A DNA stretch of 64,000 nt from a virus (lineage: Duplodnaviria; Caudoviricetes). The stretch lies in IMG/VR virus record IMGVR_UViG_3300013947_000022, positions 128,001-192,000 of that record; one strand, given 5' to 3'. The notes below the pieces were generated by a model. That model did no database searches. It was not told the DNA's origin and worked only from the letters and a program-made list of their open reading frames with translations. Below are positions 18,143 to 47,889 of this stretch, in pieces (position 1 is the stretch's first letter; the number at the start of each line of letters is the position of its first letter). The translations under genes and the position numbers were made by a program.

Positions 18143-18207
18143 TTGACAATTTATATCTTGTGTGTTATAATGTAGACAGAGATTGATATAGTCTCTGTCT
18201 ACTTTTT
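18143..18207 (+). promoter_or_regulatory. promoter abutting a terminator-like hairpin
   Basis: TTGACA-17-TATAAT then gtagacagaga/tctctgtctac + TTTTT. Confidence 0.65.
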
Positions 18208-18231
18208 GTGTCTTAAGGAGACTTAATATAA

Positions 18232-31762: not shown

Positions 31763-31977
31763 TTGACAAATGGATTAAGATATACTATAATATCATCATG
31801 GAGAGAGGAATTGGTCTCCTCTCTCCTTTGTAACTCATTTTGTTAGTTACGGTGTTTGATGATGAACACTTGGATTACACTCGTAGTATAATCAACAGAT
31901 ATAACTTGCTACATTGAATCACCTCCTTTCACAATGAGTTTGAGGATAAAGACAGAGTTCAAAGCTCTGTCTTTTTT
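31763..31977 (+). ncRNA. cassette 1 antisense RNA (promoter to terminator)
   Basis: TTGACA-17-TATAAT, 5' hairpin, terminator gacagag/ctctgtc+T6. Confidence 0.6.
31843..31914 (-). CDS. amber-containing micro-peptide 1, M*QVISVDYTTSVIQVFIIKHRN (*=TAG)
   Basis: GAAAGGAGG SD; homologous to peptides 2 and 3. Confidence 0.75.
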
Positions 31978-31990
31978 CTTATATTATGCA

Positions 31991-32059
31991 TCACTTAAGA
32001 AATATCTTACCATTTTCAGTAGTAATGGTGTTCTTATAGAGGCAATTTAAGACTGACAT
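31991..32059 (-). pseudogene. duplicate remnant of the methyltransferase C-terminus
   Basis: LNCLYKNTITTENGKIFLK vs DCIRKNTITSKGGKNFLL. Confidence 0.55.
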
Positions 32060-32072
32060 AATTATATTCCTT

Positions 32073-32822
32073 TCAAATATTATATTTTTTAAATAATTCT
32101 TTTTGAGGAGCAAATTCTCCATAATATTCTTTTTCTGCTTTTAGTCGTTTTACAATAGCATCTTCTTTCTTTTTAAATCTTCCTAAATAGGTACGTTTTT
32201 TATTAATTCTTATTGAAACGACCCATTTCCCGTCTTTGGCTTGATATATTCCCGTTATTCCAGAAGTGTTGTTCTTTCTTATTTTTACGTTCATCCCATT
32301 TTCAGAGACGGAAGCAATACGAAGATTAATTTTGCGGTTGTCTAAAGAATTTTGATTTTCGTGGTCGTAAATTGTTTTGTTTTTCTTGTCTTTACCTTTC
32401 ATAATAAAATTGCTCATAGTATAATTAGTATTGTTAATACAAGTACGAAGATAAAGATAGCCATTTGTTCCTTTTTGAACCTCCCAGTAATAATTTTTAA
32501 TTTTATCAAAATCTTCTAAATCAAAAAAGAACTGATAACCTTTATCTGTCCAACCTATCCCGTATTCTTCAGTTGTTAAATCATATTTATTTTTCTTTCT
32601 TTCTTTTTCGGCATTTTTCTTCCCTAATTTTTTAATATTCTCTTTTCTCAAACAACCACAACTATTAATACCCCTACCTAAATTACCATTGCTTACAGAA
32701 ATTAATTCTGGATTACCGCAAGAACAAGAACATAACCAATAAGTTGCATTTTTTTCTTTGCTTCTTTTTTCGTCTTTTGCCTCAATGGTTAAACGTCCAT
32801 AAGTTTCTCCAATTTTCTTCAT
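32073..32822 (-). CDS. HNH-AP2 homing endonuclease
   Basis: CSCSCG, DH..DNRK.NLR, NNTSGITG AP2 domain. Confidence 0.85.
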   Translation of the reverse strand: MKKIGETYGRLTIEAKDEKRSKEKNATYWLCSCSCGNPELISVSNGNLGRGINSCGCLRKENIKKLGKKNAEKERKKNKYDLTTEEYGIGWTDKGYQFFFDLEDFDKIKNYYWEVQKGTNGYLYLRTCINNTNYTMSNFIMKGKDKKNKTIYDHENQNSLDNRKINLRIASVSENGMNVKIRKNNTSGITGIYQAKDGKWVVSIRINKKRTYLGRFKKKEDAIVKRLKAEKEYYGEFAPQKELFKKYNI

Positions 32823-33376
32823 AATAAAAAATTCTTTCCTCCTTTAGAGGTAATAGTATTTTTTCTGATGCAATCAGAATTTAATTTGTATTCATTTATT
32901 TTTTGATTTCTTTGATAACAATCCTTTTTTGTTGTTTTCCCAATTCCATCTCCTCTTCCTGCGTAAATACTAATATAATATAAAGATTGCTTTTTGTCAA
33001 GATTAATAAGAAAAGAAAAGTTTCTGATTTTGTTTTGTAACTCATTTAAAACAATATCATCATTAATGACATTCAACACATTGGAGCAGATAACAATATA
33101 GGGCTCACAAGTTAAAGCATCATGGTTTTCATTTTCATCTTTCCAGAATGGGTCATATCCTTTATAGATAAAACCCTTAGTAGCAAGGAAATGCTCAATG
33201 TGGTCAGTATAGCGACCACAACCAAAATCGAGAACAATGGGAGTGCGGTCAAACTTAGTAAGCTTATTCCAACGTTCACGAAGAGCGTCCCAATCCAAGC
33301 GATTATAGATAGCGGGAAGCTTCTTGGAATTGATGGAAGTGTTCTTAGAAGTGATGTCAGACTGAATAATGTACAT
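32819..33376 (-). CDS. class I SAM-dependent methyltransferase
   Basis: VLDFGCGR, YDP, CSNVLNVI. Confidence 0.8.
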   Translation of the reverse strand: MYIIQSDITSKNTSINSKKLPAIYNRLDWDALRERWNKLTKFDRTPIVLDFGCGRYTDHIEHFLATKGFIYKGYDPFWKDENENHDALTCEPYIVICSNVLNVINDDIVLNELQNKIRNFSFLINLDKKQSLYYISIYAGRGDGIGKTTKKDCYQRNQKINEYKLNSDCIRKNTITSKGGKNFLL

Positions 33377-33419
33377 TGTAGTACCTCCTTAAATAAATTG
33401 AATTGTTTGTTAATTTTTG

Positions 33420-33743
33420 TTAATTGGAACGAATCTGTGCTGCGATTTTGTCAATGACAAGACGATATTTATTTGTCATTTTAGGAGACTTATAATTTCG
33501 TCCGTGACGAAAGACATTGATGATATTATAAGTATCATCTGTAAGGCGCAACATATAAGGAGCATTAAATTGAATGAGAACAGAAACATAATCAAAATGT
33601 TCTGTAGGAGTATTAGCTCTCCATTCGATGATATACTTTCCTGTATCAACGACAGGGGCAAAAACTTTAAGTTCTCGCCCAAATTCGTCATGAAGGGTTT
33701 TAAGATAGAAATAATCTCCATAAATAACGTTGTATTTAGCCAT
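33420..33743 (-). CDS. hypothetical protein
   Basis: AAGGAGG SD. Confidence 0.6.
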   Translation of the reverse strand: MAKYNVIYGDYFYLKTLHDEFGRELKVFAPVVDTGKYIIEWRANTPTEHFDYVSVLIQFNAPYMLRLTDDTYNIINVFRHGRNYKSPKMTNKYRLVIDKIAAQIRSN

Positions 33744-33778
33744 GTTTGTAGCCTCCTTAAATTTGTTTTGGACGTTGT

Positions 33779-34054
33779 TTAGACGTCAATAGTAGCAGTT
33801 TCCTCAACGATAAGGAAATCACCAGCGAGGTGAATATCATAGGTTGTGTATGTCTTTCCAGCAAGAGGTTCAACGGGGATAGTATCACTAACATATCCCA
33901 ATTCAGAAAGGAATTCTTGCGCAGCCTGTTGAGTCGTCATGACATCGGTAATATCATACCATTCTTCAATATTATCCAATGTGTAGATATGAAGCTGAGT
34001 TTTGACTTCGCTGTTGTCCAGCCATGCGTAGCCCGTAGAGATATACTTTTTCAT
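33779..34054 (-). CDS. hypothetical protein
   Basis: AAGGAG SD. Confidence 0.65.
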   Translation of the reverse strand: MKKYISTGYAWLDNSEVKTQLHIYTLDNIEEWYDITDVMTTQQAAQEFLSELGYVSDTIPVEPLAGKTYTTYDIHLAGDFLIVEETATIDV

Positions 34055-34075
34055 TTTTTATTTTCTCCTTAAAAA

Positions 34076-34708
34076 TTAGAACAAAGTTTTGATTTGAAGG
34101 TTGCGACATCCACAAACAGCGCAACGATAACGTTGCGGATTTTGAATGAGCTTACAAGCTCTTGCTCTTGTAGCAACAATTTTGTTGCAGTCAGGACAGA
34201 TGATTTGGTATTTTATACCCCCAAGTTGAGCGGAAGCTTCCTTTGCAAACCATGCAGGAGCATCTTCTTCTCTAATGCATCGAGTTACTTTAAACTCTGT
34301 GAAATTGGAAACATAATTAGCCTTATATTTCCATTCGCCTGTATGTTTCATTCCGTCTTTAGTAGCATGAAGAACCTCATGAAGAATTACTTCATGCACT
34401 CCTTTGGGGAGAGCGACTTCAAAATACCGATGGGAGAATGTGAGTACATATTTATACTCATGGTCTCTATGACAAAGACCGATGGATTTGGGTCTGGGCT
34501 TTTCATTCCACTGAAGATAGAACTGGACTTTCTGCATTTGCTTTTCGTGTCCCCAGATATAATCCAACCAGACACAAATTTCATTCACCTCCTTTCTAAT
34601 ATCGTCAAGCGTGTAGTTTGCGGTGTCTTTACGAGAGAAAGACTGAGGGATAAGAGTACGAACAGTAGGCATAAAACTTTCCTCCATTAAAATATAAATA
34701 TTAGACAT
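34076..34708 (-). CDS. SprT-like zinc metalloprotease
   Basis: LHEVLH (HExxH), H..xWK, C-terminal CxxC..YRCxxC. Confidence 0.8.
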   Translation of the reverse strand: MSNIYILMEESFMPTVRTLIPQSFSRKDTANYTLDDIRKEVNEICVWLDYIWGHEKQMQKVQFYLQWNEKPRPKSIGLCHRDHEYKYVLTFSHRYFEVALPKGVHEVILHEVLHATKDGMKHTGEWKYKANYVSNFTEFKVTRCIREEDAPAWFAKEASAQLGGIKYQIICPDCNKIVATRARACKLIQNPQRYRCAVCGCRNLQIKTLF

Positions 34709-34713
34709 TGGTT

Positions 34714-35265
34714 TCAGTTATGGTCGCGAACATCTGCGAAGTGGTCAACAAGGCTTTTAGTTTTAAAATTCATTCTTTCGGTTTTTTCTTCAATTCGGTG
34801 TATAAGTTTGCTACGAAGATTTGTGTAAATGTTATATTCTTCCCAACGAGTGATAAAACCAGCTTTACTAATGCCAAATGCCTGTAAAGAGTTATTAGGA
34901 CTAAAAGTGGGATGAGCAATAGAAAGATTCTCGTTCCACCCACAACCCATAAAATACATACTTTCAGTATTTGCATTAATTGCAATGCTATATTGAATCG
35001 CTGTATCATCTGCGGAATAAAAAACGCGAATAGCGTCGATTTTAGCTTCTTGCATAACCCTAAGAAGAGGCTTAAGCTGTTCGCAAATAGCCATCCATTT
35101 GGCTTCTCCCATAGCTTCGATTTTAGGAGTGTAGAATTTGTCAGCGTTCATGAATTCATTCTTAGCTTCTGTTAGCTTATTCAAAGCCATAGTAAGCTCC
35201 ATATCCTCGTGAGTATCGTATTCGACAGTGACCTTGATGTTGTTGATAGTGTTCTTGATTTCCAT
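34714..35265 (-). CDS. hypothetical protein
   Basis: AAGGAG SD. Confidence 0.7.
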   Translation of the reverse strand: MEIKNTINNIKVTVEYDTHEDMELTMALNKLTEAKNEFMNADKFYTPKIEAMGEAKWMAICEQLKPLLRVMQEAKIDAIRVFYSADDTAIQYSIAINANTESMYFMGCGWNENLSIAHPTFSPNNSLQAFGISKAGFITRWEEYNIYTNLRSKLIHRIEEKTERMNFKTKSLVDHFADVRDHN

Positions 35266-35334
35266 GATAATTCTCCTTTAAATTAAAATTTGTTTTTGGA
35301 TGCTTAAATAAAGGGATAGTTATCTACCCCTTAT

Positions 35335-35751
35335 TCACTTAACTTCAATGTCGTAGAAATCTTCGTCGCAGTGGAAACATTGATAAGTGTATCCATCAAT
35401 CTGGGACGGATAAAGATTACGTCCACATTTGGGACATTTCTTTACAGGGTCACATTCCTCACCTCCATTTTCAAGAAACTCCATTTCATCGTTTGTGATG
35501 ATTTCATTCTCGTTCAAAGCGAAAAGGAGTCCGTCATAAGTTTCGCAGATTTCTTTCTGGAACTCAGGAACGGCTCCAATCTTGCGTTTAATCATTTTCA
35601 CCTCACTTCCATCGACAACAACACAAGGAGTTTCGTCTCCTAAGCTGTTGTTTTCGAGGAGACAATAAACCTTGTCATTGATACGTTTAAAATCAATGAT
35701 GCTCCAAAGACCAAAGTGACCAGAAGTTTTGTAAGTGTTGTCCTTAACCAT
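35335..35751 (-). CDS. hypothetical protein with C-terminal zinc ribbon
   Basis: CPKC..CFHC; AAGGAGG SD. Confidence 0.65.
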   Translation of the reverse strand: MVKDNTYKTSGHFGLWSIIDFKRINDKVYCLLENNSLGDETPCVVVDGSEVKMIKRKIGAVPEFQKEICETYDGLLFALNENEIITNDEMEFLENGGEECDPVKKCPKCGRNLYPSQIDGYTYQCFHCDEDFYDIEVK

Positions 35752-35786
35752 TTTAAAATCCTCCTTAAAATTATTGTTGTTTATGG

Positions 35787-36002
35787 TTAAATCTGAGAAT
35801 AAATATCCCAATTCACATTATAAAGGTAAGAACCCATCATAATGAGAAAAAGCTTACGTTGATTAGATTCTCCCCAAACACGTCTCATACCCGTGATATT
35901 GGGATGAGGACCTGCATTGGGAAAAGTTTCGATATGAGACTTAAGGGCTGGGGAAATGCTGGACTTCTTTGCGTACTTAACAGGATAGACTTTGTTTTTC
36001 AT
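35787..36002 (-). CDS. hypothetical protein
   Basis: AAGGAGG SD. Confidence 0.6.
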   Translation of the reverse strand: MKNKVYPVKYAKKSSISPALKSHIETFPNAGPHPNITGMRRVWGESNQRKLFLIMMGSYLYNVNWDIYSQI

Positions 36003-36016
36003 TTTGATAAACCTCC

Positions 36017-36661
36017 TTAAAGTTCTTTAAAATTTATGGGTAAAATTTCATATTCGTCAATTTTTTCTGGATGAAGTAAATCTTCACAGAAAAAACCATC
36101 ACTTGAGAGAATTTCACAAGCTTTAAGTTCATTCATTGAAAGGCAAGATTTGTTGAAAATGGGGTTGTTAGCGGTTAATCCAGCAATATAGCATAAAGCT
36201 AATTTTGGGAAGAATTCAAACTCGTGAACCTTAAATTTAACTCTTCCTTCTTCAACAAGCTGGTTAAATGTATCCGCCCACATACAGACAGCAGAATACA
36301 TATTGGGACAACTATCATCTGGGACGCAAATATCCTCCCAAGAATTAATAGGTTCATCGAAGCTGTCTGTATAGAACGTAATTTCAAGAACACAAGTCGT
36401 ATCAAATGGATGAGGTAGGCAAGCGTTCTGAATCTGAGCCTGTTCATTACAACGCTCAAGACAATATTGAATTGCTGTTTCGTTGTCATCATCATAGATG
36501 CATTCAGATTTTTTCATAAGAGTAGCATCATGGAAAAAGATAGACGTTCCATCTGATACTGTCCAAGGGTGAATAATATCGTGTAAGTCATTCCCATATT
36601 CACCATGAACGATAGGCTCAACAGAGGATTTAACGCAACCATGATAAAGAGTATAAGACAT
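36017..36661 (-). CDS. hypothetical protein
   Basis: AGGAGG SD, 214 aa. Confidence 0.7.
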   Translation of the reverse strand: MSYTLYHGCVKSSVEPIVHGEYGNDLHDIIHPWTVSDGTSIFFHDATLMKKSECIYDDDNETAIQYCLERCNEQAQIQNACLPHPFDTTCVLEITFYTDSFDEPINSWEDICVPDDSCPNMYSAVCMWADTFNQLVEEGRVKFKVHEFEFFPKLALCYIAGLTANNPIFNKSCLSMNELKACEILSSDGFFCEDLLHPEKIDEYEILPINFKEL

Positions 36662-36702
36662 AATACTAACCTCCTAAATTTTTATGTTTTCTGAAAAAAT
36701 AC

Positions 36703-37017
36703 TTGACAAAAAGGAAAGAGTATGATATACTATTCACAGTGAGAGGGAAAATCCACATTCCCAATACTATGACATGGAAAGGTAATGACAGACCACAGAG
36801 CGCGATATATCCGCAGCTTCAAATAGTATATCATACTCACTATCTCAACTGTTAATTACGGTGTTGATAGATTCCAATTGCGACTGCATTGAACTAATAG
36901 TCAACGCAGATGATTTTCTTCATTTTATCATCTCCCTTCTTAAAATGAAGTTATATGAAAAGGTGTGTGGACACCTTGTTTATGAGTTTGGAGCAAGTGT
37001 AGGCTTGCTCCTTTCTC
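36703..37017 (+). ncRNA. cassette 2 antisense RNA
   Basis: TTGACA-17-TATACT; loops TCCACA / TGTGGA; terminator ggagcaag/cttgctcc. Confidence 0.6.
36852..36923 (-). CDS. amber-containing micro-peptide 2, MKKIICVDY*FNAVAIGIYQHRN
   Basis: GAAGGGAG SD; family homology. Confidence 0.75.
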
Positions 37018-37489
37018 AATCTCTGGGGTCAGGTGCAACATCAATCCAAAGGCCATCTCCCGCATCAGGGTCATGATGAAGCTCAACATTTTCGACGAGC
37101 AAGGTGTCGGAAAGACTATCCCAATTCCAGAACCCCACCGTATCATAGGCGCAATCACAACCGACAATCCATTCTCCTTTAGATGTATCATAAATTGCAA
37201 TCTGCGTTTCCTTAGAAAGAGTGCGAACAAAATCTCCAATGGAAACATAATGGTCAGAATTGTCTGTCTTGTTATCCTTGCCATAAACATAATCAACAGC
37301 AGCCTGAAGATTATCCATGAAATAGTGACCTTGAGCCCAATACTTACGCTGATGGTCGATGCCCCATGCACCGATATATCGAGGAGTTCCATCATTAGTC
37401 CAGTTGCAAAGCAAGGTACGGTCAAGTTTCTTGTTTTCAGCGATAATCTGATAAGTGATGCCATTGTCATTTCTAAACTCTCTAACCAT
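37016..37489 (-). CDS. hypothetical protein
   Basis: GGAGG SD before ATG 37489. Confidence 0.7.
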   Translation of the reverse strand: MVREFRNDNGITYQIIAENKKLDRTLLCNWTNDGTPRYIGAWGIDHQRKYWAQGHYFMDNLQAAVDYVYGKDNKTDNSDHYVSIGDFVRTLSKETQIAIYDTSKGEWIVGCDCAYDTVGFWNWDSLSDTLLVENVELHHDPDAGDGLWIDVAPDPRD

Positions 37490-37524
37490 TTTAAATACCT
37501 CCAAATATTTTTTGTGAATTTTAC

Positions 37525-37788
37525 TTGACAAATGAAAAGAAATGTGTTATAATCAAATCACAATCTAAAAGAGACCTGCAACCTCAGATAGATTGTGACT
37601 TGTGCAAGAAATTAAATTGGTGGATTAATTCCTATGCTTAATAATAACGACCTAACAGGTGTTATAAGTATAATCAATATGTTTGATTTTACTCATGTAG
37701 AATCACTTCCTTTCTCTCTTAAAGAGGGAATTAAGCTTTGCAGGAGCTTAAACTAAAAGACAGGTAGTTTGTGGGCTACCTGTCTTTT
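37525..37788 (+). ncRNA. cassette 3 antisense RNA
   Basis: TTGACA-17-TATAAT; loops CCTGCAA / TTGCAGG; terminator. Confidence 0.65.
37625..37696 (-). CDS. amber-containing micro-peptide 3, MSKIKHIDYTYNTC*VVIIKHRN
   Basis: GAAAGGAAG SD; TAG aligns with CAA (Gln) of peptide 1. Confidence 0.75.
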
Positions 37789-37795
37789 GCTTTAG

Positions 37796-38668
37796 TTAGT
37801 CCTCAATTCCATATTGAGAAAAGAGATGTTTTTGGGGAGCAAATTCCCCAAAAAGTTCCTTTTCTTTTTGAAGTCGGTCTTTTACAGCATCTTCAAAAGA
37901 ACGCCAAGTTTTTCTGTAAATATATCCATTACAAGCTATTCTGGTACGCCAAGTTAAAGTGCCTGATGGTTTTATTTCTTTGTATACTCCAATAACGCCA
38001 CTTGTATTATTTTTAGCTAAAGACATATTGTAACGATTTTCAGCAGAAGATGCTTCTCTTAAATTATTTTTTCTACAATTGGTTACATCTCTATCTTTGT
38101 GGTCTACAATCTTCCATTTAAAATCTGTTACTAAATGATGAAAAGCAATATTTTCTTGGTCAGCAGACCTAAGATAATTCCCATGTTCAGTAACTCGCCA
38201 TGTATGAGTACAAACTTTTTCATAATCTTCTTTATCAAAATAATATTTTGTGTCGCTATTAATTGGAATAACTGCCATTGTTATATCATCTATTATCTCA
38301 TATTTATTTCCCCTTCTATGATTTTGATGAATACCACAAGTAACAATCAATCCGCTTTTTAAATGAGTGGCTCTTACGCTTGTTTGAACACCGCAAGAAC
38401 ATTGGCAAATCCAATAAACTCTTGTTTTTGTTTTGTCTTGTCTTAAAACAGTTAATTCGCCAAAAGTTTTGCCTGTTAAATCTTCAAATCTGCGAGTAGA
38501 ACAACCACAAGATTTTATATGGCCATTTTTAAGTTCACATCCTCTAACTATTTGCGTGTTACCGCATTGGCATTCGCATTCCCATAATTCAGGAACAGTA
38601 GATGATTGTTTTATAACAGTTAATTTACCATAAACATCTCCAATTTTTATTTCTTTATTATTGTCCAC
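37796..38668 (-). CDS. HNH-AP2 homing endonuclease
   Basis: two CxCxCG repeats, VDHKDR..NLR, NNTSGVIG. Confidence 0.85.
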   Translation of the reverse strand: MDNNKEIKIGDVYGKLTVIKQSSTVPELWECECQCGNTQIVRGCELKNGHIKSCGCSTRRFEDLTGKTFGELTVLRQDKTKTRVYWICQCSCGVQTSVRATHLKSGLIVTCGIHQNHRRGNKYEIIDDITMAVIPINSDTKYYFDKEDYEKVCTHTWRVTEHGNYLRSADQENIAFHHLVTDFKWKIVDHKDRDVTNCRKNNLREASSAENRYNMSLAKNNTSGVIGVYKEIKPSGTLTWRTRIACNGYIYRKTWRSFEDAVKDRLQKEKELFGEFAPQKHLFSQYGIED

Positions 38669-38670
38669 TG

Positions 38671-39153
38671 TTAATCTCCTTGTTTATCAATAAATGAAAT
38701 ATTTGCCAAATTGACAGTAATAGTATCGGGTTTTTCTGATAGCTTGTTAAAATAGGAATTTTGCACATATCCAGTAGAAGCTAAAACATCTTTTTTAATT
38801 GGATTACCATTGAGATAATACTTTACTTTTGAATGATTAGGGGTAGAATGCAAAACCACATAAAATTTTGTTTGCCCCTCTTTGTCTGTATGAGTAAGGA
38901 TTCTATCTGACCCGTCTAAATATTCCCCCCATTTTCTTGCTTGGGGAACATATCCTTGTGCCATTTTGTTTTTAACTGCTTTTGTATTAAGGCGATTAAT
39001 TCCCACTCTAAAAGTTCCATAAGTTTTCTTTGTGACAATGATTCCCTCTTTTTTAGCCTTAGCCGTAAGAGGCACATCAGAAACATATCCCATATTAAAG
39101 AAACGTCCCTTGGCAATACGGTTTAACTTGATAATAGCTTCGTTCTTGTTCAT
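38671..39153 (-). CDS. hypothetical phage protein
   Basis: AAGGAG SD. Confidence 0.7.
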   Translation of the reverse strand: MNKNEAIIKLNRIAKGRFFNMGYVSDVPLTAKAKKEGIIVTKKTYGTFRVGINRLNTKAVKNKMAQGYVPQARKWGEYLDGSDRILTHTDKEGQTKFYVVLHSTPNHSKVKYYLNGNPIKKDVLASTGYVQNSYFNKLSEKPDTITVNLANISFIDKQGD

Positions 39154-39206
39154 GATAATTCTCCTTTAAATTAAAATAGACTTTTTATTTGATAAGTAGG
39201 TGAGGC

Positions 39207-40211
39207 TTACGCCGCCTCGCCCACAATATCATACACGCGATTGAGAAGAGGCATACCATTGATAACAGCGGTAAAGCCCATAGGAGTCTTTGCAGTGCGA
39301 AGCGCGACAGGATGGCTTTCAAAGTCCGCTACGGCTTGCAAAGCACGAATTCCACTATTAGTAAAGTTGTCAAGGTCATTAGCCTTATAGCACTTCATCA
39401 GATAATCAATCTGACAAAGGTTACGAATCTGGATAATGTCCTTATCCTCAGCATGAACAGGGAACAGTTCCTTCGCCATCTCAAAGAACTGATTTTCACT
39501 GAAATTAATCTTTGCATATTCCTCACATTCCTTCTTGAATTCCTCAAGATACTGCTTCTGTCCCATAAGAGTGAGACGTGCCGCCTCAAGCTTATGATTC
39601 ATAGAAGAACTGTGACGAATAGTGATTTCGTTCACCATTCCCTTGCGAGCACGAGCAAGACAGTTGGAACAGAAAATGCGAATGCTGACATAGGAAATGG
39701 AGATTGCCCTACTTCCATCATGGGAGTTTTGGAGCAGGAGATAAGGCTTATAATCATCGCCAAGAATATTCATTCCATCCGTACTCATGGTAATGATGTT
39801 CTTAGCTCCATTGGTTCCATAACTTCCTGCGGTTTCAAAGTGAGCACCTTCTTCCACGAGAGAGTCGAGGAAGTCAAAGGCATCCTCGTTATTCAGAATC
39901 TCATAGTTGGGAGAAACAATGCCAAGGGACTGCATGGTATCAGTACGAACCGTTGCAACCTTATCCTTGATTGCATAAGGAGTCTGAATCATAATTTGCT
40001 TATCTCCCATCATCTGAACAACAGGCTGAGTAAACTGCAAGGGGAACTTCTCAACCTTGTAATTGAGTCCAGAAAGTTCGAGAGCCTGAGCAAGATTGCC
40101 AGCAGAGGTGATGTCCTTACCTACACCATCAGTGAAAACAGTACGCTGAACATTATCAAAACGAGAGGCGATAGGAGCAACTTTCTCACTATTGAACTGA
40201 AGAATACCCAT
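39207..40211 (-). CDS. DUF932 / TIGR03299 phage-plasmid protein
   Basis: LGIVS..Y..L.N..AF.F, FETAG, NSHDGS, RIFCSN motifs. Confidence 0.8.
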   Translation of the reverse strand: MGILQFNSEKVAPIASRFDNVQRTVFTDGVGKDITSAGNLAQALELSGLNYKVEKFPLQFTQPVVQMMGDKQIMIQTPYAIKDKVATVRTDTMQSLGIVSPNYEILNNEDAFDFLDSLVEEGAHFETAGSYGTNGAKNIITMSTDGMNILGDDYKPYLLLQNSHDGSRAISISYVSIRIFCSNCLARARKGMVNEITIRHSSSMNHKLEAARLTLMGQKQYLEEFKKECEEYAKINFSENQFFEMAKELFPVHAEDKDIIQIRNLCQIDYLMKCYKANDLDNFTNSGIRALQAVADFESHPVALRTAKTPMGFTAVINGMPLLNRVYDIVGEAA

Positions 40212-40262
40212 AATATTTCCTTTCTGCGTTTAAGCTCGCCAGCTTTTTGTTTTTGTTGAGAT

Positions 40263-40292
40263 AATTATATCACAGAATCTTGGATTTGTCAA
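40263..40292 (-). promoter_or_regulatory. sigma-A promoter for the DUF932 gene
   Basis: TTGACA-17-TATAAT with TG on - strand. Confidence 0.7.
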
Positions 40293-40576
40293 GGACTTTA
40301 GATAAAATAATCTAAAACCTTTTTTAAAGAATAAGAGGAGATATACTCCCCTTTATCTTTTAGGCAGAATATTTCCAAAGAAGCGCAAAGAGTTCATCAA
40401 CGAGCTTTCGAGCCTTAGCCTTGTCTTCATTTGGCATAGAAGTATCAGACTTTAAATCTCTCTTGAGAATATTAAGAGCATCAAGGTAACTGAGTTCGGT
40501 AATGTCGAGATTATCAATTTTCATGGTTTATTTCTCCTTTTAATAAAATAATTTGTGACTTATGGTAAGGGTGGAA

Positions 40577-41107
40577 TTACCACCCATATACCTTCTTAAT
40601 ATACGGAGCAAGGGAACGAGTATATCTCGTAATGTCTTGCTTCGTAGCTGTGCCATTATGCACTTTCCATAGGAAATTATCCGCTTGGTCAGAGCTGATA
40701 GTAGGCTTAAGTTCTCTAAACGTGCCGAAAATACTTCCATCATGATGCGTCTGGTCGCATCTAAAATCGTACCTATCCACATAGAAGTCAGCGTATTCAC
40801 AATCCTTGAAGAACTTAAGACATTCTCCAATATTGTGACCGTAGAGCTTGTAGCCCCTTCTCCGACCATTCCAAAGTCCGATGTCTGCAAGACAGACAAT
40901 TCGACCTTCTGTGTTGATATTGAGATTCACACGCTCATCATCGAGATAATCGAAATTGAGTTCGTACATTTCTTCCGTGAGAGTGTTGTCATCAACATCG
41001 ACAGGGAGGTTATTAAGCTCCCTGTTTTCAAGCAATCCCTCCTTCCAATCCTTAAGATTGAGTTCGTAGTTCTGCCAAATGTGACGAATAGGTTCTCTGC
41101 TTTTCAT
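40577..41107 (-). CDS. hypothetical phage protein
   Basis: GGAGG SD; GLWNGR and HHDG motifs. Confidence 0.7.
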   Translation of the reverse strand: MKSREPIRHIWQNYELNLKDWKEGLLENRELNNLPVDVDDNTLTEEMYELNFDYLDDERVNLNINTEGRIVCLADIGLWNGRRRGYKLYGHNIGECLKFFKDCEYADFYVDRYDFRCDQTHHDGSIFGTFRELKPTISSDQADNFLWKVHNGTATKQDITRYTRSLAPYIKKVYGW

Positions 41108-41185
41108 TGTTCATACCTCCAAAATTTTATTTGAGTTTATTTTAAATCATCTAAGATGATTTGTCAATAGGTTTTTAAGCTTATT

Positions 41186-41380
41186 TTAATGGACATTGCA
41201 GAAGAAATCTTCTTCTACAAAGGTTACACCATCATAGTGTTCAAAGATGATTTCATCAGGAATCTCTTCGGGGGTACTAAATGTACCCTCGTTAATATCC
41301 TGAGTTTCATCTTGGTAAAAGAAATTGGACTTGAGCTCATTAAGCTCATCGCGAGTTAAATCCTGAACCATTTTAATCAT
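41186..41380 (-). CDS. small acidic hypothetical protein
   Basis: AAGGAGG SD. Confidence 0.65.
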   Translation of the reverse strand: MIKMVQDLTRDELNELKSNFFYQDETQDINEGTFSTPEEIPDEIIFEHYDGVTFVEEDFFCNVH

Positions 41381-41685
41381 TATTTATTCCTCCTTAACAT
41401 TCAGTCTTCTCAATGGTCATATCAAAATGTTCCTGACCGCGCTCTTCAGCTTCATCAATCTTTTCGTTGATATACTGAAAAAATTCTTCACGGGATTCGC
41501 AGAAGATGGCAGTACTGTCTTCTTCACCGAGACAAAAAGATAAAATTTTGTTTTTAGTCATAATAATTTCCTTTCTTTTTTTAAAAAAGTTCTTGACAAG
41601 TGGTTATTGATGTGTTACAATACCTACAGAGTCAAGAGACCCGTAACCTCTCAACTCTGTAGGATATTAATTTTGATTTCTTCTC

Positions 41686-41766
41686 TTATAGCTCAAGGAA
41701 ACCAGTAAGCACTATTACATAGTAATAAATGCCAAATTTGTAATCAACAAACTTAGTTTTCTACAT
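41686..41766 (-). CDS. amber-containing micro-peptide 4, M*KTKFVDYKFGIYYYVIVLTGFLEL
   Basis: GAAAGGAG SD; family homology. Confidence 0.8.
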
Positions 41767-41908
41767 GGCTTTCATCTCCTTTCCTCCTTAGACAAGGGTT
41801 TCATTTATATGAACAGCTTACGGGGCTGGAGTTTTTATGGTGGAGAGATGAAACTTGAAGCCCGTACTTCCTTGCTTCATCTCTCGTGACGCATTCTAAT
41901 TTCTTAGA

Positions 41909-41989
41909 TTACAGCTCTAAGAAACCAGTTAGTACTATTACAAAGTAATAGATATTATGCGTATAATCAAGCTATCTTAGCTTACGCAT
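41909..41989 (-). CDS. amber-containing micro-peptide 5, MRKLR*LDYTHNIYYFVIVLTGFLEL
   Basis: GAAAGGAG SD; synonymous changes relative to peptide 4. Confidence 0.8.
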
Positions 41990-42319
41990 CAACAACCACT
42001 CCTTTCTGATTGTTGTATCTATGTGAACAGTTACGGGACTGAGTTTCACAAAGATTAGGAACAGGTTTAGCCCTGTTCCTTTCTTTTTCTCCTTTTTTAA
42101 TACATATAATACTCATCGTCATGATGAATATAACGTTCAGTCAAATCCTTCAAAGGTTGACTGATTTTCTTGGGCTTCTCTTTAAGGCGTGAATCTTTAA
42201 AGGCTCGATTTGTATAGTATCGGAATTTTCCATGTCCCTTTACCATCTTATTGTGACGCTGGGCTTGAAAAACTTCATGTTCATTCATTCCCATTTGTTT
42301 CACCTCCTTTAGTTTGTTA

Positions 42320-42643
42320 TTAATAATGATATCTGCCCCTTTGGGGATTTTCTTCCTTCCTTTTGCAATCAAACACCTTACTAATGTTGTAAGCCCAGAT
42401 AGAATCACCGAGACTTGTATCAATACAAGGTTGAACACGAATCGGGAAATGGATTGAAGCACAATAATCTTCAATCCGCTTAAGTTGGAATTTGCGAAAA
42501 ACGGTGATTGTATCACCTTTGAGCAGAGCTTTAATATCTGCCTGCTCAAGAGTATCAATCAAAAGATTGAGCTTGCTGTTGCTATCAATGTTATTGATAG
42601 CCTCGTTCATATAGCGTGTAGTCATGTTTGTCATAGCAGACAT
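42320..42643 (-). CDS. hypothetical protein
   Basis: GGAGG SD. Confidence 0.65.
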   Translation of the reverse strand: MSAMTNMTTRYMNEAINNIDSNSKLNLLIDTLEQADIKALLKGDTITVFRKFQLKRIEDYCASIHFPIRVQPCIDTSLGDSIWAYNISKVFDCKRKEENPQRGRYHY

Positions 42644-42874
42644 TTTACTTAGCCTCCTTTTTAATTTTACCCATAACTTTCATTTCGTCCTCATCAAATT
42701 GGGAACAGATTTTCAACTCTTTTTGATACCAGAGCTGTTGGCATTTCTTACATTGGACAATGTCATTCTGCATTACCACAAACTTGTGGGAAATGCAATG
42801 TGGATTGGGGCAAAAAGCTGTGAATTTCATTTCCGATTTCTCCTTATTATTCTCAAGTTTTTTGTAAATTCTTC

Positions 42875-43126
42875 TTGACAAGCTAAATAAACTATGTTAT
42901 AATCTTCAACGGTTAAAGAGATGAGCGAATGAAACTCAGAGCTCTTTAACTGAGATTGGGTTAAGTTGTGGCGAACTTGTTAGACCTCAATCTTACCACC
43001 GAGGATATGTGACACCACGGTGACATTGAAGAAATAGTTTATTGACTAAATCTTACGCATTTGGAAGTCCTCCTTTCTTATGTGATAAGAACAATCAGAC
43101 AAGCACAAATGAGTGCTTGTCTTTTT
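42875..43126 (+). ncRNA. cassette 6 antisense RNA
   Basis: TTGACA-17-TATAAT, 5' hairpin, terminator agacaagcac/gtgcttgtct+T. Confidence 0.6.
42980..43060 (-). CDS. amber-containing micro-peptide 6, MRKI*SINYFFNVTVVSHILGGKIEV
   Basis: GAAAGGAGG SD; family homology. Confidence 0.75.
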
Positions 43127-43343
43127 GTTTAGAAATAATACTTAAAGTAACAGTCAACAGGTTTGACTGTCACTTTAGCCGAAGAATCCAAACCCATCTT
43201 GGTTGTTTTAATAACATAACCAAATCTGGCGTAAGCATCTTTTATGCTTCTTGCTACTACGTCGCCTTCATATAGCTTGGATTGACCTCCAAGCTGTGCA
43301 ATGTAGGCTTTAACATGGTATTTAGATTTGCGCTGAATAGGCA

Positions 43344-43529
43344 TTATTCCACCTCCTTTTCTTTGTAATGAGCGCATTGGTCAACCTTGAAGTAAACTCC
43401 ATGATTGTACCAATATTCTACTCTTTTTGTATTGAACTGTTTATGGTAAAGGCAAATCTCTTTGTTTCCACAAGTAACGCAGAGATTAGTGTTCTTCTTA
43501 AGATACTCCTGCTTTTCTTTGAGCGTCAT
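43344..43529 (-). CDS. small Cys-rich protein
   Basis: AAGGAG SD. Confidence 0.55.
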   Translation of the reverse strand: MTLKEKQEYLKKNTNLCVTCGNKEICLYHKQFNTKRVEYWYNHGVYFKVDQCAHYKEKEVE

Positions 43530-43574
43530 TTTCTTTCTCTCCTTTTCATTTTTATTTTTATTGTTAAATTTCTC

Positions 43575-43878
43575 TTGACAAATATTAAGAGTTATGCTAT
43601 AATTCTCTCAAAGAGTAAAGAAATCCCGTATTCTTTCAATACTCTTTGAGGCTATTAGTTTGTAGGGACAGTTTACTTTATATTTCATTTATCAGACTTC
43701 CATGAAGCCAGTCAAAACTACGACGTAATAGTAAACATTGAATTTGTAATCAAGCTACTTCATTTTTCGCATATATTATTTCACTCCTTTCTTTTCTCAA
43801 GACGGAGAGGTTGTCCTGCGATACGGGAAGGACTATGTGAAAAAGATTGAGCAACGGGCAGGTTGCTCTTTCTTTTTT
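43575..43878 (+). ncRNA. cassette 7 antisense RNA
   Basis: TTGACA-17-TATAAT; loops CCCGTAT / ATACGGG; terminator. Confidence 0.65.
43692..43772 (-). CDS. amber-containing micro-peptide 7, MRKMK*LDYKFNVYYYVVVLTGFMEV
   Basis: GAAAGGAG SD; family homology. Confidence 0.8.
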
Positions 43879-43888
43879 GATTTTTACT

Positions 43889-44215
43889 TTATTCCGTGGT
43901 AATGACCCATTCTTCTCCATTCCCATCAATAATATGAACCACTTCGTTATTGATAGTAACAGATTCTAAATTGCAGAGCCAAGACTCTACAATCTCAGTG
44001 TGGTTTGTCATTGAAGCTTCTTCAGCTTCATGTAAGCCGTCCTCAAAACCTACGTTATAAGAGCCAGTTAAATCTTCCTCAGAGTAGAGAGTGGTGTCCT
44101 TGATGGCATAGGACTTTTCGCCCATGTCCCATCCAAGATAGAACATGAAGATACTGCAAAGGGTTGTAACCAAAGCAACGATAAGACCGATATTTTCCTT
44201 GACCTGATTTTTCAT
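43889..44215 (-). CDS. membrane-anchored hypothetical protein
   Basis: N-terminal TM segment. Confidence 0.65.
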   Translation of the reverse strand: MKNQVKENIGLIVALVTTLCSIFMFYLGWDMGEKSYAIKDTTLYSEEDLTGSYNVGFEDGLHEAEEASMTNHTEIVESWLCNLESVTINNEVVHIIDGNGEEWVITTE

Positions 44216-44248
44216 TTTTCATAACCTCCGAATATTTGTAAATAATAC

Positions 44249-44549
44249 TTGACAAACGCTAAATGTTATGGTATAATTCTCTCAAGAAGTGAGGAATCCC
44301 GTATTATTCTCTCACTCCTTGAGGCTATTGGTTTGTAGGAATTGGCTTCAATGAATTAGAGCTCCATGAAGCCACAGCTTACTATTGTAAAATAGTAAAC
44401 ATTGAATTTGTAGTCAAGCTACTTTAGATTCTTCATTGAATCACCTTCCTTTCTTCCTCTAACTGAGGGATTGTCGCACTATACGGGAGCGACTTTTTTA
44501 GAATGGAAAAGATTGAACGACTCGTTGCGGGAGTCGTTCTTTCTTTTTT
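44249..44549 (+). ncRNA. cassette 8 antisense RNA
   Basis: TTGACA-17-TATAAT; loops CCCGTAT / ATACGGG; terminator. Confidence 0.65.
44356..44436 (-). CDS. amber-containing micro-peptide 8, MKNLK*LDYKFNVYYFTIVSCGFMEL
   Basis: GAAAGGAAGG SD; family homology. Confidence 0.8.
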
Positions 44550-45423
44550 ATTTGCCTTCAATGACTTTCTCAACAAAGAGCCCCATACAACCTTCGGGAT
44601 GCTTTGTGGAAACATCTTTGAATTCCTTTCGCTGTGCGTCGATAAAATCAGTTGAAGTGTCATATTGCTCAAGAGCTTTAACAAGCTTAATTGTTTTAAG
44701 CATATCGTTTCCATAACGCTTATAAGCCTGATACCCAATGTTGAGACTGGCTTCCACGAAAGCTTTACTATCGTGGTCAGCCCAGCCACTCAAATCAATG
44801 AGCGCGAGTGCATAATTAACGCCTTCATCTCCGAACTCATCGTGAATCTGAAGAAGCTTTCTGGGAGCGGTGATATTACGAAGACTGCCCTTCTTACCTC
44901 CAACTGTGACATTGTATTTGTCACAAATTTTCAGAATAGAAACAGCAGGCTCAAGATTTAATTTTCGAGCACAGTTAAACATATCTGCGGGGGAAACTCT
45001 GGTTACGCCATCATTCTGGTGCATGAATAAATAAGCTTCTTCTTCAACGGTTAATCCATCAAAGAGCCTGCACCAAGCCCATTTATATCCTTTTGCATTA
45101 AGAGATTCAATGGTATGATGCCCATCCCAGCATTCAAGATACCCATCACGGAAATTGAGAGATTTAACTTCACTCCGCTTATAGTCAAAATTGCGGAGAA
45201 TGGACAAATAAGAATGCTTAAGGTCTCTCTGTCCTTCAAAAAGATTGATAAGATTGAGAGGAACTTTTACCATCGTCCAAGGACGGGAAGGATTCTCACG
45301 AATCTCTTTGAGCGCGGGAATCAGAACCGTCTTAGCCCATGTGGAGTTCATATCCACCTTGATACGTTCAACGCCGAGAGTGTTCTTGCTGTTGATGCTG
45401 TTCATGTTGACCTTCTTCTTCAT
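44548..45423 (-). CDS. ParB/Srx-like N-terminal domain protein (DUF6551-like)
   Basis: QR..., WDGHHT, EEAYLF..QN motifs. Confidence 0.6.
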   Translation of the reverse strand: MKKKVNMNSINSKNTLGVERIKVDMNSTWAKTVLIPALKEIRENPSRPWTMVKVPLNLINLFEGQRDLKHSYLSILRNFDYKRSEVKSLNFRDGYLECWDGHHTIESLNAKGYKWAWCRLFDGLTVEEEAYLFMHQNDGVTRVSPADMFNCARKLNLEPAVSILKICDKYNVTVGGKKGSLRNITAPRKLLQIHDEFGDEGVNYALALIDLSGWADHDSKAFVEASLNIGYQAYKRYGNDMLKTIKLVKALEQYDTSTDFIDAQRKEFKDVSTKHPEGCMGLFVEKVIEGK

Positions 45424-45487
45424 AATCCTGTGTCCTTTCTGGTGTTATAGACTTTTCCTTGTCTAAATAAAATATTTAGAGTACAAA

Positions 45488-45542
45488 TAAGCACTCTATG
45501 GAGGGACAGAACTATCAAGCTCTGTCCCTCTAACAATGCTTA
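45488..45542 (-). repeat. conserved stem/internal-loop motif, copy 1
   Basis: + strand TAAGCACTCTAT-[hairpin]-TAACAATGCTTA. Confidence 0.75.
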
Positions 45543-45743
45543 TTAGAACCGCATCACTTCGGTGCGGTAAATCTTGCCAGTCTTAGACTGATTATAGCGC
45601 TTAACTGCGCCATAGTTAATGGACTGAGCAATTTCTTTGGGCTTACTCTCTTCATTGTAATGACAAGTCTTACAAGACTTGCCATTACAAATCCCCATCT
45701 CAACCAGAGATTTGCATTTCTTGGTCATAATATTAGAATCCAT
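45543..45743 (-). CDS. small Cys-rich protein
   Basis: AAGGAG SD. Confidence 0.6.
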   Translation of the reverse strand: MDSNIMTKKCKSLVEMGICNGKSCKTCHYNEESKPKEIAQSINYGAVKRYNQSKTGKIYRTEVMRF

Positions 45744-45804
45744 ACTGTTCTCCTTTCGGCTTATAGCCTTATAAAATTGTTTACAGGAACTTTATATAAA
45801 ACAC

Positions 45805-46012
45805 TTGACAAATATAGCCAAGTGTGTTATAATCAGAGACAGTTAAGAAAGATGCTGTCACATCAATCTTAACTGCTCTTGTGGATTTATATCAGATTAT
45901 TACCAGATAACCTCCGATAATAATACCGAATGCCACTATGTTGTACTAACGTACAACGTCGATAGTAATGCGCATATTACTACCTCCTTTCTGAGTGCTG
46001 ATTTGACTTGCT
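45805..46012 (+). ncRNA. cassette 9 antisense RNA (3' end uncertain)
   Basis: TTGACA-17-TATAAT, 5' hairpin with loop CTGTCA. Confidence 0.5.
45892..45975 (-). CDS. amber-containing micro-peptide 9, MRITIDVVR*YNIVAFGIIIGGYLVII
   Basis: GAAAGGAGG SD; same architecture. Confidence 0.7.
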
Positions 46013-46068
46013 TAAGCACTCTATAGAACGTCAGAAGTTATCTCCTTCTGACGCTCTAACAACGCTCA
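46013..46068 (-). repeat. conserved stem/internal-loop motif, copy 2
   Basis: + strand TAAGCACTCTAT-[hairpin]-TAACAACGCT. Confidence 0.75.
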
Positions 46069-46125
46069 ATCGAGCAATATCAAAGAGATATGTTTGACCA
46101 GTTCATACCTCTTTGACATGGATGA

Positions 46126-46281
46126 TTAGTCTAAGTCTAACTTAGTTACATCAATCTGGAAGAATTCAATTAGCGAATCAACACTCATGTGTTGCGTATA
46201 CCAATTAAATTCAAACTCAGAAGTGATATTCTATAATAGAATAGCATCAATCTTCATTTTGTTCATAAGACTGTCTTCCAT
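46126..46281 (-). CDS. 51-aa hypothetical protein with TAG=Gln at codon 17
   Basis: GAAAGGAGG SD; single in-frame TAG. Confidence 0.55.
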
Positions 46282-46371
46282 GAATTCCTCCTTTCTTGTA
46301 ACAAGCTAAGTGGGGTTAGCTGTTATTAATATCCTAATTGGTCACTTTAGGATGGAGTCTTAGCTACGAAC

Positions 46372-46426
46372 TAAGCACTCTATTAAGCCCACCATCAATT
46401 ATGATGATGGGCTTTAACAATGCTTA
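46372..46426 (-). repeat. conserved stem/internal-loop motif, copy 3
   Basis: + strand TAAGCACTCTAT-[hairpin]-TAACAATGCTTA. Confidence 0.75.
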
Positions 46427-47008
46427 CACGCAATGCAATGTATTATAATAATAATACATTGTACGGTCAAATTCTCTTATAACGGTTTTTAACTCGTTTG
46501 AGTCCTTTAGAAGAGCAATTAACTTACCCTTCACTCTGTCAAGGCGATACATATCATTGCTCTTAACAGCGTAGTAACCATCTACGTGGATGAGTTTGTT
46601 GACCTTGTTACGCATCTCCGTATTCACTTTTTTTAATTCCTTTCGCTCCTTTCTCAAGGGAGACTTTAAAATTTATTATTGCCGAGACTTGTGGAATAGG
46701 ACTCATTTGTTTATACTCGTTGAATCCTTTAGAGACGAGTTGAAGAGTTAGATGTGGCGAATGTACCACATAAAGCTCTTCTTGCCTCCTGTGAGGCGAT
46801 AGATAAGGTACATTGCCATTACAGCAACGATACCAAGAGAAAAGATGATACTGAAAACGATAGAGATAAACATGAGAGCGAACATTTTACTGTTCTCCTT
46901 TCTGGTGTGAAGATTCTGTGTTGGTTTCCCATCATCAGTGCCGTAGTAACCAGCTACGACAGACAGAGAGAGATTTTACCCTCTCTCCCTGTTTCGGGAT
47001 TTAGTATA

Positions 47009-47230
47009 TCAGAACTTGATATACTCCACGAACAGCTCGGTTGCGAGTGAAGAATAAATGTTGCTGTCAAGGACAACAACCTTATCTTCACCCCAGTACA
47101 GAGCGAGAATCTTATTGGTACGCTTGATAGCGTAACCCTTGTTGTCCTCGACAATGCCGAGGTCAATCTTGGCGTTGGTAGCGTTGGTGTCCTCGATGGC
47201 ATTGAGGATGTTCTTTTCAAGTTTGGTCAT
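47009..47230 (-). CDS. hypothetical protein
   Basis: GAAAGGA SD before ATG 47230. Confidence 0.6.
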   Translation of the reverse strand: MTKLEKNILNAIEDTNATNAKIDLGIVEDNKGYAIKRTNKILALYWGEDKVVVLDSNIYSSLATELFVEYIKF

Positions 47231-47299
47231 GACTGATTTCCTTTCTGGTTTTAACGTCTTGTAACCTGACGATGATAAGAAATATTTATTATAAAACAC

Positions 47300-47525
47300 T
47301 TGACAAATAACCTATCAAGTGATATAATACAAACATAGAGAAGAAACCTATATTTCTTCTCTATGAGGAGATTCAAGGATTTTAGAGAATCCAAGAACCA
47401 TCAAGAATAATGCTATAGCTGATTACACCATTATTCTTATCTATAGATTTTACAATCTACATTGTAAATCCTCCCTTCTTCGAGGATAAAAGTCAATATG
47501 AATTATAGGCTTCATAATGACTATT
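47300..47525 (+). ncRNA. cassette 10 antisense RNA (may extend through downstream hairpins)
   Basis: TTGACA-17-TATAAT; loops CCTATA / TATAGG. Confidence 0.6.
47382..47462 (-). CDS. amber-containing micro-peptide 10, M*IVKSIDKNNGVISYSIILDGSWIL
   Basis: GAAGGGAGG SD; same architecture. Confidence 0.7.
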
Positions 47526-47889
47526 GAGGAATTTCTGTTTCTCTCGTTTTGCCTGAGAAACAGAAATTCATTCTCCTTTATTCCGAATTAGCTGGAAATT
47601 TAATTCGGAATAAAGGAATATATGAAGCAAAAGAGATGAATGATTTGTTTTTGAGCTTGTCATTCATTTCTTTGACTTTGCTGAAGATAGAAACAAGTGA
47701 AATTACATTACCGTAATTCGCTTTTTTGTATTTCTACTACATATGACATGAAAGTAAAGGGAGAAATAAAAATTTTTAAAAAATTTTTTAAAAACAAAAA
47801 AATAAAAAAGACAGAGCCTTCTAATCGAAGCTCTGTCTAAATTTATATCTAAAACTTTATCCTTTGTCTCTTATCCTTTAATCTTTTAC

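Follow-up and report, generated by a model that had tools for sequence, protein, structure and literature searches.

Candidate type I toxin–antitoxin-like modules in a TAG-recoded phage: micro-genes with an amber codon beneath antisense RNA genes

Closest described systems

Full-overlap type I toxin–antitoxin loci provide the nearest known logic for ten intergenic cassettes found in a 64,000-nt stretch (hereafter the window) of a Caudoviricetes genome (IMG/VR record IMGVR_UViG_3300013947_000022). The phage is a single contig of 215,374 bp, and the window comprises its bases 128001–192000. Each cassette holds a very short open reading frame (micro-ORF) with an in-frame TAG on the − strand and a predicted antisense small RNA (sRNA) gene on the + strand. 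Among type I systems, ibs/Sib of E. coli is the reference, and Fst/RNA II, hok/sok and aapA1/IsoA1 follow the same logic. Loop–loop contacts and long-range 5′–3′ pairing are typical of type I toxin messages. The cassettes share with ibs/Sib the multi-copy family, the very short ORFs (18–30 codons) and a cis-antisense RNA of ~150–250 nt that covers the whole ORF and is driven by a strong promoter of constitutive type. Unlike the ORFs of type I loci, those of the cassettes lack a promoter of their own, and half of their peptides do not have the character of hydrophobic helices. The cassettes add an in-frame amber codon as a second, code-dependent lock, and their carrier is a TAG-recoded phage. 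They yielded no sequence or covariance-model match to type I families.

The late genes of phages that read TAG as Gln are recoded with amber codons, and this stop-codon recoding has been proposed to delay the translation of lytic genes. The cassettes resemble these genes, including the structural genes of the present genome, in that an in-frame TAG would tie translation to the phage suppressor system. They differ in TAG density, which is ~9 times higher and amounts to 1–2 TAGs in every 25 codons, in most cases at codon 2 or 5/6. They also lie in a TAG-poor block of early-type genes, and their amber lock is joined to an antisense RNA.

Promoter-early stem-loop (PeSL) elements are mobile regulatory cassettes of T4-type phages (PMC2839356, PMC4122927). 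There, as here, a repeated consensus promoter and stem-loop (with a terminator in some cases) stand between small accessory genes, and mosaic junctions are found at these sites. Unlike PeSLs, the cassettes have promoters that oppose the genes (9/9 face away from − strand genes), and they enclose a selected micro-ORF and a covarying loop pair. We found no paper in the literature that describes such modules.

Antisense promoters, amber codons and coding selection

The contig has ~33% G+C, strong GGAGG-type ribosome sites and numerous TTGACA-17-TGnTATAAT promoters; the genes at 31.7–47.6 kb of the window are on the − strand. A sequence-only reading had placed ten units in this segment, each with a TTGACA-17 promoter, a hairpin at +1, an ORF led by a Shine–Dalgarno (SD) sequence and a second hairpin. 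All ten were located there with these elements. Along the + strand, a unit reads promoter, hairpin at about +1, reverse complement of the micro-ORF and its SD, second hairpin and, mostly, terminator. The nine + strand promoters start at 31763, 36703, 37525, 41593, 42875, 43575, 44249, 45805 and 47300. They match TTGACA-17-TATAAT at 11–12 of 12 positions, carry a TG extension in eight cases and belong to the same class as the promoters of the phage genes. The promoter at 41593 serves two ORFs in tandem, which gives nine promoters for ten ORFs. The micro-ORFs have 23–27 codons, a GGAG-type SD and exactly one in-frame TAG each (10/10). The U-tailed terminator that the same reading called usual is clear on the + strand for seven of the ten units (31763, 37525, 41593/41835, 42875, 43575 and 44249); it is weak at 36703 and absent at 45805 and 47300. 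The hairpin and T-run make a good terminator on the + strand, whereas the tail on the − strand is poor and reads AATCTTT...

A search for homologues, suggested with that reading, was carried out by a pattern scan and a six-frame hidden Markov model (HMM) search. The family recurred in at least 12 related IMG/VR contigs of 108–219 kb and in one mis-binned contig of a metagenome-assembled genome, with 3 to 10 cassettes per relative. The comparative set contained 43 distinct units and 40 distinct coding sequences (CDSs). In the 215-kb genome itself, short ORFs that follow an SD and bear the family motif were sought genome-wide, and the ten micro-ORFs proved to be the sole members. Applied to 185,579 prokaryote genomes, the pattern scan returned 15 matches, and true cassettes were present in one only, on a 28-kb contig (L051) that is binned to a Bacteroidaceae bacterium genome and is probably phage. 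The other 14 were chance matches. Megablast of the region against the phage collection gave no match. Rfam gave none at gathering thresholds and none on the cassettes in E-value mode, and Pfam, NCBIfam and PHROGs contained no family that matched the peptides; no described family was thus recovered.

An antisense promoter of the form TTGACA-17-TAnnnT was present in 43/43 units from at least 12 phages; it is encoded on the strand opposite the ORF and lies downstream of its stop. The cis-antisense RNA with its own promoter, a feature of type I loci, is therefore predicted from these 43 promoters and the seven window terminators.

The altered TAG code assumed in the sequence-only reading was borne out. 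Comparative sequence shows that the genome reads TAG as Gln, because giant ORFs of 2707, 1665 and 1032 amino acids (aa) open only when their 7, 10 and 6 TAGs are read through, and because TAG swaps with CAA or CAG at 27/29 positions between orthologous late genes of two relatives. ARAGORN at default settings found no suppressor tRNA in the contig. At a relaxed threshold, it reported a tRNA with anticodon CTA and a 219-nt insert (G000:C1:111750-112043) beside tRNA-Ile in a tRNA cluster, outside the window and ~16 kb ahead of its start. This tRNA is a candidate amber suppressor, to be taken as a lead and not as a result. With introns allowed, ARAGORN listed three further intron-bearing tRNAs at 105615, 107851 and 110779.

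Both features of an amber-gated gene, TAG read as Gln and an in-frame TAG within a selected frame, were found in the cassettes. One or two TAGs occurred in 39/40 distinct CDSs, at codon 2 (20 cases), codon 5/6 (15), codon 10 (4) or codon 15 (7), and 22/26 six-frame HMM matches from five relatives also had a TAG. TAG accounts for 46 of 985 micro-ORF codons (4.7%), whereas its share is 0.51% of codons in the late genes and 0.10% in the − strand block around the cassettes; the enrichment over the late genes is ~9-fold. TAG makes up 46 of the 53 Gln codons of the micro-ORFs. The residues opposite a TAG in the paralogues vary (K, R, S, T, F, H and others); the conserved feature is the presence of a TAG, and not a glutamine at one site.

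ORFs outside the family also contain a TAG. One, of 582 aa at 55492–57240 (+), requires a single TAG to be read through. In Enterocloster, Psychrobacillus and Thomasclavelia phages, the records annotate its homologues as RNA-dependent RNA polymerase; Bacillus phage BUCT082 (43% identity) and Clostridium phage c-st have homologues without annotation. Amber gating may thus extend to the polymerase of the phage itself. Another is an SD-led ORF of 51 codons with one in-frame TAG (46125–46280, −; MEDSLMNKMKIDAILLqNITSEF..., where q is TAG), located between the − strand promoter at 46470 and unit 8.

The ten window peptides aligned without gaps, as expected from the relatedness noted earlier. They fall into a 23-aa subfamily, with C-terminus KHRN (YNRN in relatives), and a 26–27-aa subfamily mostly ending in GF[LM]E[LV] or GG-x-IE[LV]; the C-termini of units 8 and 9 deviate (GGYLVII and GSWIL). 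The coding selection that had been read from synonymous changes held up. Within the subfamilies, pN/pS (nonsynonymous relative to synonymous differences) was 0.36–0.48, so that the ratio is not near 1. Differences were three-periodic (32/22/45% at codon positions 1/2/3), and the two other reading frames were closed almost always. Over their last ten codons, units 4a and 4b differ by four synonymous changes and no amino-acid change. By the low pN/pS, the periodicity and the closed frames, the micro-ORFs are coding and under peptide-level selection across the TAG. In two relatives, at L003:6686-6924 and on a contig of run X28 (over window 44339–44419), the promoter, both loops and the terminator are kept and the micro-ORF is frameshifted or truncated; in X28, 26 nt stand in place of 79 nt.

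Silencing by both an antisense RNA and an amber codon had been proposed from the sequence alone. Its comparative part stands: the decoding of TAG as Gln, the selection across the TAG, the enrichment of TAG, its presence in 39/40 CDSs and the antisense promoter in every unit indicate that the double lock is a conserved design and not chance. That the antisense RNA is made and blocks the ORF is what we infer from this arrangement.

The loops of the two hairpins form a covarying pair. CCYRYA in the hairpin 1 loop and TRYRGG in the hairpin 2 loop were found in 35/43 units, and the pair was exactly complementary in 35/35 of these, whereas shuffled partners gave 11.9 matches on average and 21 at most. 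Five haplotypes occurred (CCCGTA, CCTGCA, CCCACA, CCTACA and CCTATA). Unit 2 has a shifted pair, TCCACA/TGTGGA, and units 1, 5 and 8 with their relatives lack the motif. The sense and antisense RNAs are complementary and bear the same loop pair, so the pairing could close either RNA on itself. Complementarity was scored by a scripted motif test; the MAFFT alignment A4 placed six rows 1–2 or more columns out of register in loop 2. An unrestricted longest-complement test of the two flanks was rejected, as cognate and non-cognate pairs overlapped in it; only the position-restricted and motif-based tests separated the cognate pairs. A first count of G–U pairs had suggested selection of hairpin 2 on the sRNA strand. 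This bias arose because terminators were included in the count, and it disappeared when the count was limited to the TRYRGG-loop hairpin (12 vs 14).

Units of the window and their surroundings

Unit 1 (31763–31980, +) has its promoter at 31763–31791, a hairpin at 31800–31826 and a terminator at 31948–31974 with a T-run. Its micro-ORF (31843–31914, −) encodes M-q-QVISVDYTTSVIQVFIIKHRN, with TAG (q) as codon 2. In unit 2 (36703–36990, +), the promoter (36703–36731) is followed by loop TCCACA at 36752–36757, with the partner TGTGGA at 36966–36971. This partner sits in a hairpin within the 3′ end of the upstream gene, and the T-rich tail is weak. Micro-ORF 2 (36852–36923, −) reads MKKIICVDYqFNAVAIGIYQHRN, with TAG at codon 10. 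Unit 3 (37525–37795, +) consists of promoter 37525–37553, loop CCTGCAA (37575–37581), partner TTGCAGG (37738–37744) and terminator 37754–37789. Its ORF (37625–37696, −) encodes MSKIKHIDYTYNTCqVVIIKHRN, with TAG at codon 15.

Units 4a and 4b form a tandem double cassette (41593–42095, +) with a single promoter (41593–41621) and a terminator at 42057–42080. Loop CCCGTAA (41640–41646) pairs with TTACGGG (41818–41824) in 4a, and CCCGTA (41861–41866) with TACGGG (42032–42037) in 4b, all on the + strand. Micro-ORF 4a (41686–41766, −) gives MqKTKFVDYKFGIYYYVIVLTGFLEL; an alternative start at 41775 would add MKA, but the second ATG, which yields M-TAG-K..., is the likely start. Micro-ORF 4b (41909–41989, −) gives MRKLRqLDYTHNIYYFVIVLTGFLEL, with TAG at codon 6.

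Unit 5 (42875–43132, +) contains promoter 42875–42903, a hairpin at 42910–42952 and terminator 43097–43122, without the CCYRYA/TRYRGG pair; its ORF (42980–43060, −) is MRKIqSINYFFNVTVVSHILGGKIEV (TAG codon 5). Units 6 and 7 share their loop sequences. Unit 6 (43575–43880, +) has promoter 43575–43603, loop TCCCGTAT at 43624–43631, partner ATACGGGA at 43821–43828 and terminator 43849–43868, and its ORF (43692–43772, −) encodes MRKMKqLDYKFNVYYYVVVLTGFMEV. In unit 7 (44249–44552, +), the promoter is at 44249–44277, loop TCCCGTAT at 44297–44304, partner ATACGGGA at 44481–44488 and the terminator at 44515–44539; the ORF (44356–44436, −) encodes MKNLKqLDYKFNVYYFTIVSCGFMEL. Both have TAG at codon 6.

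Unit 8 (45805–46060, +) is reduced to promoter 45805–45833 and a hairpin at 45840–45875, with neither the CCYRYA pair nor a T-tailed terminator. Its ORF (45892–45975, −) gives MRITIDVVRqYNIVAFGIIIGGYLVII (TAG codon 10). Unit 9 (47300–47580, +) comprises promoter 47300–47328, loop CCTATA (47347–47352) and partner TATAGG (47504–47509), again without a T-tailed terminator; micro-ORF 9 (47382–47462, −) reads MqIVKSIDKNNGVISYSIILDGSWIL, with TAG at codon 2.

Each cassette ends 30–80 nt upstream of a − strand gene start, with neither promoter nor terminator in between. The neighbors are of accessory types (DUF932, GP88, SprT-like, a ParB-like DUF6551 protein and HNH endonucleases), and the genes downstream of different cassettes are unrelated to one another. 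Because they have no promoter of their own, because the − strand terminator tails are poor and because the next gene follows at 30–80 nt, the micro-ORFs have the appearance of internal cistrons, or of upstream ORFs, within polycistronic messages. Such messages would start at a few − strand promoters (33000, 40292, 41167, 46470 and others).

Elsewhere in the window, a Hammerhead_II match below threshold (30.3 bits, with the gathering score at 37; E 0.0098) was obtained at 46920–46999 (−), within or beside a − strand ORF (46819–47220) with one TAG. At 18143–18230 and 24692–24760 (+), a consensus promoter is directly followed by a hairpin and T-run before the SD of the next gene (e.g., 18232–19653); these sites are possible leader terminators or attenuators.

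The relative L001 is ~80% identical to the window overall. In units 4a and 7, the promoter, both hairpins, SD and terminator are ~99% identical between the two, and the ORF bodies have strongly diverged. The unit 7 ORF body resembles that of window unit 6, which suggests an exchange between paralogues; the unit 7 flanks are orthologous to those of a different peptide type in relatives. Units 4b, 5 (ORF side) and 6 are missing or replaced in L001 (window 41580–45878).

Isolate-sized sequencing runs of one organism contain 79–100% of the sampled words, so a temperate or plasmid-like lifestyle of the phage is plausible. Among the listed runs that contain the stretch, none is recorded as RNA at a useful share, and four runs compared with it yielded contigs of relatives only, which carry no information on strand, transcript ends or level. 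Two recombinases give a hint in the same direction: a serine recombinase at the contig end (G000:C1:1127-1549, −) and a tyrosine recombinase with an in-frame TAG (G000:C1:31649-32191, +).

Possible functions and their meaning

With moderate confidence, we favor the view that the cassettes are type I toxin–antitoxin-like modules, double-locked by an antisense RNA and a genetic-code switch. The first lock is suggested by the anatomy. An sRNA of ~180–270 nt, transcribed on the opposite strand from a consensus host sigma-A promoter, would have full complementarity to the micro-ORF and its SD as well as to the hairpins on either side. Its pairing would block initiation and create double-stranded RNA for cleavage, as in full-overlap type I loci of the ibs/Sib type. 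The second lock emerges from the sequence comparison. Under the standard code of the host, the in-frame TAG, mostly at codon 2 or 5/6, would limit the product to 1–14 residues, and the full-length peptide of 23–27 residues would be made only after the TAG-to-Gln decoding of the phage turns active. The covarying 6–8-nt loop pair that brackets the ORF probably closes the message 5′ to 3′, or nucleates sense–antisense pairing. The peptides would act late, as effectors that are harmful if made early.

The sequence-only reading had described most peptides as beta-strand/aromatic rather than transmembrane. This holds for the 23-aa subfamily, in which beta propensity exceeds alpha propensity and the apolar runs span 3–9 residues, save one peptide that reaches 12. 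Most members of the 26-aa type have an apolar run of 12–16 residues. Because of this apolar tail and the basic N-terminus, the membrane may be where the 26-aa type acts. The 23-aa type resembles a beta-hairpin.

Several points weigh against the toxin–antitoxin-like reading. All evidence for the cassettes comes from sequence, and no family match in the Pfam, NCBIfam and PHROG searches ties the peptides to any toxin. In all but one peptide of the 23-aa type, the apolar runs are so short that, by sequence, it does not look like a transmembrane toxin. A toxin mRNA with its own promoter, the defining feature of classical type I loci, was not found: in every unit, the stretch from the upstream terminator to the micro-ORF SD is free of sigma-A-like promoters (a search made partly by eye). 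A special lock on the SD was rejected as well, since the micro-ORF SDs had an unpaired probability of 0.42, compared with 0.38 in 31 control genes (p = 0.79); they are no more sequestered than the SDs of ordinary genes. Hairpin 1 has 31 G–U pairs on the ORF strand as opposed to 8 on the sRNA strand, and of 27 informative sequences, 21 give the more stable hairpin on the ORF strand and 6 on the sRNA strand (p = 1e-4). The breakpoints of the window–L001 mosaic, finally, fall mostly within ~15 nt of cassette element borders (45878, 43888, 43128, 42969, 42096, 41835 and 41580), a coincidence observed in this one pairwise comparison. We therefore describe the cassettes as working in the manner of a type I module to which a code-dependent lock has been added, and do not class them as members, because the toxin promoter, a membrane-type segment in the 23-aa peptides and a match to a catalogued family are lacking.

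The main rival, which we consider possible but unlikely, holds that a unit mainly controls the next − strand gene as a regulatory leader or processing cassette. The micro-ORF would then be an upstream ORF in a polycistronic message, the antisense RNA would create a double-stranded cleavage site between cistrons, and hairpin 1 would serve as a 5′ stabilizer or translational gate. Whether the TAG is read would report the code state to the downstream gene. The spacing to the next gene, free of terminators, speaks for this role, and so do the poor − strand tails of the shared terminators, which lead one to expect − strand read-through. The G–U bias implies that hairpin 1 works in the mRNA leader of the next gene, and it fits a regulatory leader at least equally well. 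A precedent is PepNL, a leader peptide whose effect hinges on stop-codon read-through (PMC11890864); it has in common with the cassettes a tiny upstream ORF whose read-through sets the outcome. In contrast to PepNL-type arrest leaders, the TAG position varies in the cassettes, an antisense RNA gene is present and sequence similarity is absent. Moreover, peptide-level selection spans the whole ORF, including the conserved C-terminus (HRN, GF[LM]E[LV]), which suggests that the product matters. Inspection by eye revealed no mutually exclusive terminator/antiterminator pair, as in leader-peptide attenuators, and no U-tract for hairpin 1 on the mRNA strand. The downstream genes are mutually unrelated, and the ORF body can be swapped while the neighboring genes stay.

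A variant of the double lock, which we rate as rather improbable, treats the cassettes as AND-gate sensors of the decoding state. The harmful peptide would be released only if the antisense RNA collapses and amber suppression appears. When host sigma-A transcription collapses, the short-lived antisense RNA would be lost with it, and the gate could time the late program of the phage. In a lysogen or a phage-plasmid carrier, it could kill cells superinfected by another TAG-recoding phage that brings its own suppressor tRNA. If true, this would be an abortive-infection system keyed to a genetic-code change.

It is doubtful that the cassettes are primarily mobile promoter/stem-loop/terminator linkers of the PeSL kind, in which the micro-ORF is a passenger and the units are recombination sites that shuffle accessory genes. 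PeSLs are composite promoter–terminator motifs that mediate modular shuffling (PMC2839356, PMC4122927). The breakpoints at the element borders, the varying number of cassettes among relatives and the nearly identical flanks around different or replaced ORF bodies are in line with such a role. However, the promoters point away from the flanking genes, unlike those of PeSLs, and the coding selection, the universal TAG and the covarying loop pair would be left unexplained. A linker role is not an exclusive alternative, and it could coexist with either the toxin–antitoxin-like or the leader function.

Precursors of the RiPP type (peptides made on the ribosome and modified after translation), matured by the radical S-adenosylmethionine-like protein at window 129–1745, are very improbable: the family is multi-copy with short related peptides and the window does encode this Fe–S oxidoreductase-like protein, but its gene is on the opposite strand at a distance of 30 kb, the peptides lack a leader/core organization, and the copies are dispersed, each with its own antisense RNA.

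The combination of TAG-bearing micro-genes with overlying antisense RNA genes is without a described counterpart. Phages have been proposed to use stop-codon recoding for timing, but there has been little dissection of how this works. The cassettes compress it into genes of 25 codons, each with a single TAG, and join it to antisense control, which makes a small system that can be tested by mutation. If the double-locked toxin–antitoxin-like reading is true, the cassettes would be the first type I-like module with a toxin side that hinges on a genetic-code change. The cassettes also add a conserved family of phage micro-proteins that is invisible to gene callers because of its length below 30 codons and its apparent stop, and they offer a clean natural example of covarying loop–loop RNA pairing. 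Because the cassette borders coincide with mosaic junctions, the data suggest that modular evolution in these large Firmicutes phages is shaped by the cassettes as well.

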